A stretch of 7,366 bases of DNA. Origin: a virus (taxonomy: Duplodnaviria > Heunggongvirae > Uroviricota > Caudoviricetes). Positions 1 to 6,685 of the stretch are shown in pieces. The stretch lies in IMG/VR virus record IMGVR_UViG_2531839665_000009. The stretch is one strand, 5' to 3'. The notes under the pieces are model-generated. The model did no database searches. It worked only from the letters and a program-made list of their open reading frames with translations, and was not told where the DNA came from. Each line of letters opens with the position of its first letter. Within the stretch, counting starts at the first letter, position 1. The position numbers were made by a program, and so were the translations under genes.

Positions 1-90
1 TGCCGGACCAGCATCACCTGCCGGTCCCCGTTCGCCGGTTGCCCCGACAGGGCCGGTGTCACCGCGCTCTCCCTTATCACCCTTCGGCCC
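1..90 (-). pseudogene. stf: Continuation of the side tail fiber (stf) collagen-like region in a frame shifted by 1 nt relative to the upstream stf ORF; partial, runs off the window start
   Basis: Minus-strand codons starting at nt 90 translate to [30 protein letters not shown], an uninterrupted Gly-X-Y repeat with no stop through nt 1. The upstream stf ORF ends in the same repeat type ([19 protein letters not shown]) and then hits TGA-TAA at 79-74. Whether this is a true pseudogene, a sequencing error or a slippage site cannot be decided from sequence alone. Confidence 0.55.
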
Positions 91-886
91 CTGAGGACCC
101 GCGGGCCCCTGTTCCCCCCTTTGGCCCGGGAGGTCCCACCACGGTGGGGATTCGGTTTACGGCCTCTTCCGCCGCTATCCTGCTTTGTTCCGCTGACTGT
201 GCGCTTTCTGCTGACTCCCGGGCTTTTTCTGTTGCGGTCGTTGCATCCCTGGCTGCATTACCGGCTGCACTTTCTGCCGTCTTTCTTGACAATTCAGCTT
301 CTGCTGCACTTTGTGATGACTCACTGGCTTTTTGAGCGGCCGCAGAAGCCGAGGACGAGGACGCATCCTCTGACTGCTTTGCTGAGGCTGCACTTTCTGC
401 CGCCTGCCGGGCTGACTCCGATGCCTCCCCTGCTGAAGTGTCAGCATTTGCAGCGCTCTCTTCTGCCTGACTGGCTGATATGCCGGCATTCCTCGCTGAC
501 GTCTCCGCCTCTCCGGCATTCTTCTTCGCCTCCTCAGCGTGACGCGCCACCTCTTCCACCATCAGTTCAAAACGGCGCAGTGCCTCCGGCCGGACGTCAT
601 CCTCCGACATGGCACCGAGAAAATCATTCAGCGTCCCCGGTTGAGAATCTTCATACACGGTGATGGTCCCGGCATGTGACGGCGGGAATCCTTCCACCAA
701 CAGAATGACGCTGTACTGACCGTACTCAACGTCCATGCTGTAACGACCGGCTTCATCCGGATTTTCAGAGGCCACCGTGTTCACCACCACCGTGCTGCTG
801 GTCCGTCTGGCTTTCAGTTGAATGGTACAGTTCTCTACCGGTTTTCCTGTGCCGTCTTTCAGTACACCTGAAATCTTTACTGCCAT
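77..886 (-). CDS. stf: Side tail fiber protein Stf, N-terminal portion (269 aa from the ATG at 886..884; the ORF track extends to a GTG at 892)
   Basis: N-terminus [17 protein letters not shown]...[15 protein letters not shown]...[24 protein letters not shown] matches lambda Stf as I recall it almost residue for residue. It is followed by an Ala/Ser/Glu-rich low-complexity segment and a collagen-like Gly-X-Y tail. A GGGGTG Shine-Dalgarno-like motif lies upstream of the ATG. Terminates at TGA 79..77. Confidence 0.85.
130..520 (-). repeat. Low-complexity Ala/Ser/Glu/Gln-rich coding region inside stf (approximate bounds)
   Basis: Translation is dominated by short reiterated motifs ([27 protein letters not shown]), typical of the fibrous shaft of side tail fibers. 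Bounds were judged by eye. Confidence 0.5.
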
Positions 887-895
887 ATTCACCCC

Positions 896-924
896 ACAAA
901 AAAGCCCGCCTGAACCGGCGGGCT
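896..924 (-). terminator. Rho-independent terminator downstream of lom (minus strand)
   Basis: 8-bp GC-rich stem (plus 903-910 agcccgcc pairs with 917-924 ggcgggct, loop tgaacc) followed on the minus strand by a T-run (plus A-run 898-903). Lies between the lom stop (951) and the stf start (886). Confidence 0.7.
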
Positions 925-5363: not shown

Positions 5364-6044
5364 TTATGCCTGCCGCCCGATAACCACGACCTTTCCGCCA
5401 CCGCCTTCATCACGGGTACTGATGTCCTGGGAGATTCGCCGGGAGCCAACCAGCATTTCACCGTAAGGCACCGGCATCGGGTTCCCCTGGGCAATCATGT
5501 TATCCAGCGAGGAAAAGTACGTGTTCTGTCTGCCGTTATCCGTGCTTTTGTACTCCGGTACTTTAGCCTTCGGGGCCAGCATCTGGGCCACACCGCCCAG
5601 AATCATGCTGGCCCCCAGTGAAAACAGCATCGTGGTGGCAGAAAAACCACCGGCTGCCAGGGCTGAACCCCATAACGCCATTGATGCCCCGGCAGTGAAG
5701 AAAGAGCCCACGATGGCTGCCGCCCCCAGCACAATCTGCAGTCCACCCTTTCCGGCCCCGGCCAGTCGCGGCACAATGTGGATGACCGTTCCCTCACCCA
5801 GCTGTTCGTGAAGACGGGCGTACACCGCCTCCGGTGCCGTGTCCTCACCGCGAATACGTATCTGGTACCAGCCTTCGTTCATCTGACGGCGGAATCCCGG
5901 CATCTGCATCGACAGGGCACGGATGGCTTCCGCTGCCGTGTTCACATACAGGCTGAGGCGGCGGCCAAATCGTTGTAAATCCCCGTGAAGGCAGATACGT
6001 GCCAGTGGCGGTGACGCCAGGCTGAATGCGTTCGTCGTTGCCAT
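5364..6044 (-). CDS. I: Tail tip assembly protein I, 226 aa
   Basis: Translation (LASPPLARICLHGDLQRFGRR...VIHIVPRLAGA...LGAAAIVGSFFTAG...FSLGASMILGGVAQMLAPKA...DNGRQNTYFSSLDNMIAQGN...YGEM.VGSR.ISQ.IST.DEG) matches lambda gpI (223 aa) as I recall it. Start overlaps the K 3' end by 103 nt, the same overlap I recall for lambda K/I. Confidence 0.9.
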   Translation of the reverse strand: MATTNAFSLASPPLARICLHGDLQRFGRRLSLYVNTAAEAIRALSMQMPGFRRQMNEGWYQIRIRGEDTAPEAVYARLHEQLGEGTVIHIVPRLAGAGKGGLQIVLGAAAIVGSFFTAGASMALWGSALAAGGFSATTMLFSLGASMILGGVAQMLAPKAKVPEYKSTDNGRQNTYFSSLDNMIAQGNPMPVPYGEMLVGSRRISQDISTRDEGGGGKVVVIGRQA

Positions 6045-6685
6045 TTTTCGGAATACCTCTCCCGTTTACTCAGTTGTTCAGGCAGATGGTGAAGCAGTTC
6101 ACCGTTGCCGCAGTATATGGCGGCATGATTGGCCACCGATGCGCCAAAGCAGCACAGCAGGATATCGCCCGCCTGTGCAGAGGACAGGGGCACCCGGTAA
6201 AAGCCAGTCGCCTCCATATTGTCCAGGTACAGGTTCTGACCGTTGCGCCACCAGTCATCCTCACGCTCAAAATCCGGCATATCAATTCCCGCCAGATGGT
6301 AGGCATCCCGGAACAGCGTGTAACAGTCCGTCACCCCGTGCTCAAAGCGCCGTCCTGTCAGATGTGGCACACAGCGGAATTTATGAATTTCCCCCCGGCA
6401 GACCAGCCACCAGGACAGTGCACTTTTTATCTGCAGCCGCCGGTCGGCCTCGCTCAGCCAGGGCAGACCACCGGGATGACTGTGGACCAGTGCCACAATC
6501 TCCCCCTGCATCTCTGCCCGCAGCCAGTCTTCCGGTGCAATACGAAAATACGCCTCCGGCTCTGCAGAGATATTCACACAAGGGATATACCGCTCCCCCT
6601 CCGGCGTTCTCACCACGAAGCCGCACGACTCCGCAGGCACACACCGCCGGGCATGCACCAGAATCGCTGATTCAGTCTGTGTCAT
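5942..6685 (-). CDS. K: Tail tip assembly protein K, 247 aa (JAB/MPN N-terminal motif plus NlpC/P60-like C-terminal region)
   Basis: JAMM-type motif HSHPGGLPWLSEAD (H-x-H-x7-S-x2-D) in the N-terminal half and a downstream Cys/His pair (DCYTLFRDAY ... ANHAAIY) consistent with an NlpC/P60 fold. Position between L and I and the overlap with I match lambda K. The ATG at 6685 lies 23 nt downstream of the alternative-frame L stop; no strong Shine-Dalgarno is visible, so translational coupling is possible. Confidence 0.85.
   Translation of the reverse strand: MTQTESAILVHARRCVPAESCGFVVRTPEGERYIPCVNISAEPEAYFRIAPEDWLRAEMQGEIVALVHSHPGGLPWLSEADRRLQIKSALSWWLVCRGEIHKFRCVPHLTGRRFEHGVTDCYTLFRDAYHLAGIDMPDFEREDDWWRNGQNLYLDNMEATGFYRVPLSSAQAGDILLCCFGASVANHAAIYCGNGELLHHLPEQLSKRERYSEKWQRRTHSAWRHRHWHVSAFTGIYNDLAAASACM

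Follow-up and report, generated by a model that had tools for sequence, protein, structure and literature searches.

Side tail fibres with a collagen domain have been described in the lambdoid prophages of EHEC, and the biochemically characterised member of this group is EPclA (Ghosh et al. 2012, PLoS One 7:e37872, PMC3368898). In EPclA, PfN and PCoil make up residues 1-250 and are followed by a collagen domain of 111 residues, with PfC at residues 363-426 (PMC3368898). The protein has the shape of a dumbbell, in which a hinge joins the coiled coil to the collagen stalk (PMC3368898). PfC has been identified as a trimerisation module, while recombinant PfN-PCoil (residues 1-250) is also mainly trimeric (PMC3368898).

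The loss of side tail fibres has been studied in lambda, in which stf lost under selection for low adsorption has most often been inactivated by a frameshift at a short homonucleotide run (PMC2762979). A frameshift in stf is also carried by lambda PaPa (orf401/orf314; Hendrix & Duda 1992, as cited in PMC2762979).

The window described here is a stretch of 7,366 nt that ends inside an stf gene. Judged by its sequence, this stf is a side tail fibre gene of the ordinary EPclA type (PfN-PCoil-collagen-PfC) in a Stx-phage-like lambdoid prophage of E. coli. The reading frame is broken by one extra G close to the contig end, and this G is probably an artefact of sequencing or assembly in a strain whose own gene would be intact and of the EPclA type.

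Gene context and the stf reading frame

The window is the entire contig AFAA02000028.1 of the draft assembly GCA_000194495.2, as identified by an exact look-up of the J protein; therefore, both ends of the window are contig ends. It carries a tail-tip module of the standard lambdoid type on the minus strand in the order L-K-I-J-lom-stf, and the same order is annotated in relatives. All whole-window matches are EHEC/STEC-type prophages and Stx phages, with identities of at most 98.0% to complete E. coli genomes and at most 97.1% to phage records. The features are as follows.

[quoted passage not shown]
6685-5942, minus strand: K
5945-5364, minus strand: I
5118-1642, minus strand: J (1158 aa)
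1598-951, minus strand: lom
886, minus strand: ATG of stf
77-886, minus strand: stf open reading frame as it stands, 269 codons and a TGA, comprising PfN, PCoil, 2 true Gly-X-Y triplets and, from the shared Gly on, a 13-aa out-of-frame tail
488-886, minus strand: PfN (prophage tail fibre N-terminal), residues 1-133, PF08400, E = 1.1e-69
143-487, minus strand: Ala/Ser/Glu-rich low-complexity region, residues 134-248, the putative PCoil with limits taken from EPclA (PMC3368898)
114-119, minus strand: run of six G (six C on the plus strand) that carries the extra base shifting the stf frame; five G in intact relatives
1-113, minus strand: continuation of the true collagen-coding frame, the same base for base as in intact alleles and cut off by the contig end
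88-91, minus strand: run of four G (CCCC on the plus strand), unchanged relative to intact genes and not the lesion
74-79, minus strand: TGA-TAA double stop, present in the shifted frame only; the true frame reads GGT GAT AAG here (Gly-Asp-Lys)

A strong terminator-like hairpin is located at 903-924 (minus strand), in the interval that separates the lom stop (951) from the stf ATG (886). It has 8 pairs, 7 of them G-C, and is followed by TTTTTGTGGG, so that stf lies directly 3' of an apparent intrinsic terminator.

The intact relatives of the gene in E. coli E2865 and phage 2851 encode proteins of 437 aa with PF08400 at residues 1-133, the best stretch of PF01391 at 251-309 and PF06820 at 363-426. 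Their collagen domain contains 37 Gly-X-Y triplets. In E2865, phage 2851 and JB2 the gene is a single in-frame open reading frame. The product of the window's stf as written has PF08400 as its sole Pfam match, and in the comparison of the last 420 nt it is completely identical to the intact relatives over residues 156-248.

Position of the frame break

The initial annotation had described an stf frame of about 269 codons on the minus strand that ends at the TGA-TAA at 79-74, with Gly codons at 136, 127, 118, 109, 100, 91 and 82, and a frame offset by one nucleotide that continues to nt 1 as a perfect Gly-X-Y repeat free of stops. All of this is present in the sequence. Its reading of the gene as a lambdoid stf with a 1-nt frameshift at a homopolymer, within the collagen-like tract, also agrees with the alignment to intact relatives. 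The site of the shift, however, must be moved. The two phases had been taken to meet at the C4/G4 run at 88-91, but the Gly-X-Y periodicity of the offset frame already begins at nt 126, and the G4 run is identical in all sequences aligned.

The alignment places the lesion at another tract. Over the last 200 nt, the sole difference between the window and both E. coli E2865 and phage 2851 is GGGGGG against GGGGG at 119-114. The longer comparison of the last 420 nt gives 419/420 identical positions for the best matches, with one gap and zero mismatches. This places the shift at codons 256-257, after the first two triplets of the collagen domain. As written, the gene contains 2 in-frame true Gly-X-Y triplets, while removal of one G gives 15 perfect triplets up to the contig end. 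We will refer to the alleles by the length of this tract on the coding strand, as G4, G5 and G6.

The position of the shift is not visible by eye, since Gly periodicity is legible in both frames across 126-80 (minus strand). The periodicity of the shifted frame arises because Y codons end in G, so that an NNG-GGN junction reads GGG. The first six true triplets after GPP have the Y codons AAG, CAG, GCG, CAG, AAG and AAG, all ending in G; over the whole domain, G-ending Y codons account for 18/37. The proposal that removing one G at 88-91 fuses the two frames is thus correct for the fusion but not for the site, as dropping any base within 126-80 does likewise. The repaired protein with ...GARGSSGPKGDKG... 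that followed from this proposal is not obtained when the extra G is placed at 114-119. A comparison of C-run lengths of 3 and 4 at 88-91, which had been suggested as a check, addresses the wrong tract; at the real one, relatives have G5, rarely G4 and never G6. More generally, a shifted frame in G-rich collagen-coding DNA can keep its Gly periodicity, and locating a break in such DNA needs alignment to intact homologues.

The tract overlaps the heptamer A-AAG-GGG (122-116, minus strand), which in the stf frame has the X-XXY-YYZ form of a slippery site. A shift of this kind would be -1, which is the wrong direction, and the heptamer is also present in intact genes. It was judged coincidental.

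Occurrence of the six-G allele

The frequency of the allele has been determined with an 81-nt query spanning the tract, for which a G6 copy scores 100% and a G5 copy 98.8% (short-query megablast with identity banding). A search of 5,426 complete E. coli genomes gave 4,457 homologous places in 715 records from 708 matching genomes; no G6 copy and no match of at least 99% was found among them, and the best match was a G5 copy in 715/715 records. Likewise, none of 134 matching phage records reached 99% or more. The exact 33-nt G6 pattern gave zero matches in IMG/VR, the JGI metagenomes and a GTDB set with a single genome for each species. A gapped pattern scan returned at least 120 IMG/VR stretches, which were tallied with 3 annotated records; among the matches listed (123 loci) the tract is G5 in 119, G4 in 4 and G6 in none.

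The truncated products have also been searched for as proteins. Exact look-ups of the 269-aa form, and of the 237-aa form that was actually called, returned this contig only or nothing, and a homology search with the truncated protein singled out no twin. The protein database does contain many differently frameshifted versions of this fibre gene, some of them with several frame hops. One draft-genome product (P0077, DEC3B) has the same out-of-frame tail, which it reaches through a different, upstream shift.

Four-G alleles at the same tract

With the query changed from G6 to G4, the search detected G4 alleles in 14/715 complete-genome E. coli records. They are also present in at least four IMG/VR stretches (4/120 among the matches listed); in one of these, another homopolymer indel is located ~40 nt upstream of the tract. 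Eight G4 loci from various prophage contexts and serotypes were inspected, and 8/8 are annotated by PGAP as 'frameshifted' pseudogenes. At least 4/8 have another frameshifted gene within 1.5 kb.

A single inherited G4 lineage was considered, as the first three loci inspected adjoin an EspF-repeat gene, but the other five have DinI-like, NleG and NleC neighbours. The differing neighbours point to independent events or errors. The G4 alleles may be real mutations, or they may be long-read or 454 errors. A length change of one base in this tract is rare, and events or errors of this kind have already been catalogued.

Contig quality and other indels

Position 1 of the window is located inside a collagen-coding repeat that is present in ~7-9 copies per EHEC genome, and the G run is 113 nt away from it. 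The prophage genes in which the two contig ends fall, stf (in its collagen region) and L, have multiple copies in EHEC genomes, a pattern typical of assemblies broken by repeats, and the collagen region is also where several IMG/VR contigs end.

The extra G is accompanied by other single-base indels. Relative to the closest genome and to 126 related loci, the window has four private 1-nt indels within 60 nt at the 3' end of L and in the L-K spacer (minus strand), of which three are insertions (6747, 6716 and 6701) and one is a deletion (6688). The frame of L changes three times as a result, and the last 17 conserved residues are lost, with the protein ending in ...CEMRGSGG* in place of ...CEMRGMVANFGGFLSINKLSQ*. 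A search of complete E. coli genomes gave 6,200 homologous places, and none of the four indels recurs in any of them. Over the 161-nt stretch compared, the alignment with the best matches contains four gaps and zero substitutions. In an essential tail gene, such a mixture of three insertions and one deletion within 60 nt is unlike natural divergence, and these indels look like consensus errors.

A further length difference is found at 1600-1604, where the window has T5 in place of T6; it is shared with 1/392 matching records (666 places). The run forms the T-tail of a hairpin (stem 1623-1604, minus strand) that follows the J stop and resembles a terminator, and it is T6 in nearly all relatives. 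The only record that shares T5 is that of the O121:H19 strain 16-9255, where the neighbouring lom and stf are annotated as frameshifted.

A 21-mer comparison of the window with 126 related loci identified 11 private zones. They comprise 6 private or rare indels and ~4 substitutions, with the rest being combinations of variants. Natural divergence is expected to give more substitutions than indels. The other ~32 homopolymers of at least 5 bases in the contig agree with relatives. Four zones (2404-2410, 5394-5400, 5565-5577 and 6203-6206) are private junctions of variants that are found separately in relatives. Such junctions could have arisen by natural recombination between mosaic lambdoid prophages, or they could reflect a consensus that is chimeric between paralogous copies.

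Origin of the extra G

Genuine truncation, homopolymer error and slippage had been offered as three options for the frame break; an error of sequencing or assembly is the best supported of them, while a phase-variable or recoded fibre is not supported. An error is likely, as judged from the alignment and the state of the contig. A miscall of homopolymer length, or an error in the consensus, would have added a G to the G5 tract in a short draft contig, and one possible source of a poor consensus would be the collapse of reads from diverged paralogous prophage copies. The real gene would then be intact and encode a fibre of ~420-440 aa. Apart from the +1 in the G5 run, the last 420 nt agree fully with intact alleles; the G6 allele is a singleton across all collections scanned, and the draft contig ends 113 nt further on within a multi-copy repeat. 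The collagen sequence downstream is free of decay even though it is out of frame. The same contig holds five further error-like single-base indels (the four in L and T5), and its 6 private or rare indels against ~4 private substitutions are the opposite of what divergence would give. Some of this evidence is shared with the alternative that the extra G is real and arose by a recent slip in replication, so that this copy of stf is inactivated, since a brand-new true mutation would equally be a singleton with undecayed sequence downstream. This alternative is possible, although unlikely. Lambda readily acquires real stf frameshifts at short runs of one nucleotide, which make up 15/19 stf mutants under selection for low adsorption (PMC2762979), and the G4 alleles in 14 complete genomes, which lie in differing prophage contexts and carry the PGAP 'frameshifted' label, indicate that the tract can vary in length in deposited sequences. 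The abundance of other frameshifted versions of the gene in the protein database points the same way, as does the redundancy provided by ~7-9 copies per EHEC genome, with many of the prophages defective. The trimeric state of recombinant PfN-PCoil (PMC3368898) would also be compatible with a truncated product. In addition, the agreement of the ~32 other homopolymers with relatives argues that homopolymer errors are not pervasive in the contig, and 3/4 of the L indels lie outside long homopolymers, suggesting a messy consensus over homopolymer miscalling specifically. On the other hand, a true mutation has to be reconciled with the absence of G6 from ~4,700 other copies, with the location of the lesion 113 nt from a draft-contig end in a region prone to collapsed repeats, and with five other error-like indels, four of which are implausibly clustered (within 60 nt, and free of substitutions relative to the best matches). 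Its G4 precedents are themselves weakened, since several adjoin other frameshifted genes and may be long-read homopolymer errors.

It has also been considered that the G tract is a functional switch, either through programmed +1 ribosomal or transcriptional slippage, by which the G6 allele would still give full-length fibre, or as a phase-variable tract that is on at G5 and off at G4 or G6. This is very improbable. A Gly-tRNA in the P site on GGG would re-pair perfectly one base on (GGG-G), with GGA as the next codon in the 0 frame and GAA in the +1 frame, and some spontaneous +1 leakiness is conceivable from the sequence. Both a -1 (G4) and a +1 (G6) variant of the tract exist in the databases, and the loss of side fibres can pay in structured habitats (PMC2762979). 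However, a programmed site would be conserved, and the out-of-frame layout is absent elsewhere (715 E. coli and 134 phage records). The G4 allele occurs in just 14/715 records, which is orders of magnitude under the level of a contingency locus, and the inspected G4 alleles are annotated as pseudogenes in 8/8 cases. Typical phase-variation tracts are longer than five or six G. Programmed frameshifting and phase variation are thus not supported by the sequence comparisons. A related and highly doubtful suggestion is that the G5 tract, at the hinge between PCoil and collagen, is a slippage hot spot that would turn the side fibres of EHEC prophages on and off reversibly at low frequency. If so, the window would be the first +1 state observed, and the behaviour would match the selection against lambda side fibres in structured habitats.

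The consequences differ between these readings. If the extra G is an artefact, the effect is limited to annotation: the stf and L of this contig are sequencing-damaged genes and not pseudogenes, and the fibre counts as intact. If the mutation is real, the gene would yield a 269-aa stub of PfN and PCoil that may retain the ability to trimerise and perhaps also to attach to the tail. It would be devoid of the 30-nm collagen stalk and of PfC as the distal trimerisation/binding domain, and any virions would be without side fibres. In the EHEC-like strain, which has several redundant prophage tail fibre genes, a further copy would thereby be inactivated.

Comparison with known systems

The gene shares with EPclA the PfN domain (PF08400), an Ala/Ser-rich region that corresponds to PCoil and the start of the collagen domain at ...VVGPPGPKG. 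Once repaired, its last 420 nt are 100% identical to the genes of the 437-aa EPclA-family proteins in E2865 and phage 2851, and the gene order L-K-I-J-lom-stf is that of the EPclA-type relatives. It differs from EPclA in that the frame is broken at codon 257 by the extra G, and the contig stops short of the remaining collagen and PfC.

The G4 pseudogenes of complete EHEC genomes (e.g. PV15-279, RM10386, 16-9255 and RM9322, and also 2013C-3264, 14EC047, RM12367-C1 and MBT-5) belong to the same family and have a one-base change in the same tract, and they lose the frame at the start of the collagen domain as the window does. In these pseudogenes, the change is a deletion from G5 to G4 that results in a long out-of-frame read-through of 306-372 aa. 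The change in the window is an insertion from G5 to G6 with a stop after 13 out-of-frame residues, and it has a single occurrence.

A similar comparison can be made with the frameshift of lambda PaPa (Hendrix & Duda 1992, as cited in PMC2762979) and with the stf frameshifts selected in the laboratory at homonucleotide runs. Like these, the change in the window is a single-base indel in a lambdoid side tail fibre gene that leaves an N-terminal fragment; if real, it would be a mutation of this type and would be expected to have their effect, which is the absence of side fibres. The break in lambda PaPa is at ~codon 401, while in the window it is at codon 257, at the PCoil/collagen junction. Lambda also has a long Stf that functions with Tfa, whereas the fibre type of the window has collagen and PfC, and the change in the window is probably an artefact. 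The gene family is characterised, and the lesion type is known from lambda and regularly labelled by PGAP at this tract; the specific +1 allele is unique, and it is probably not real.
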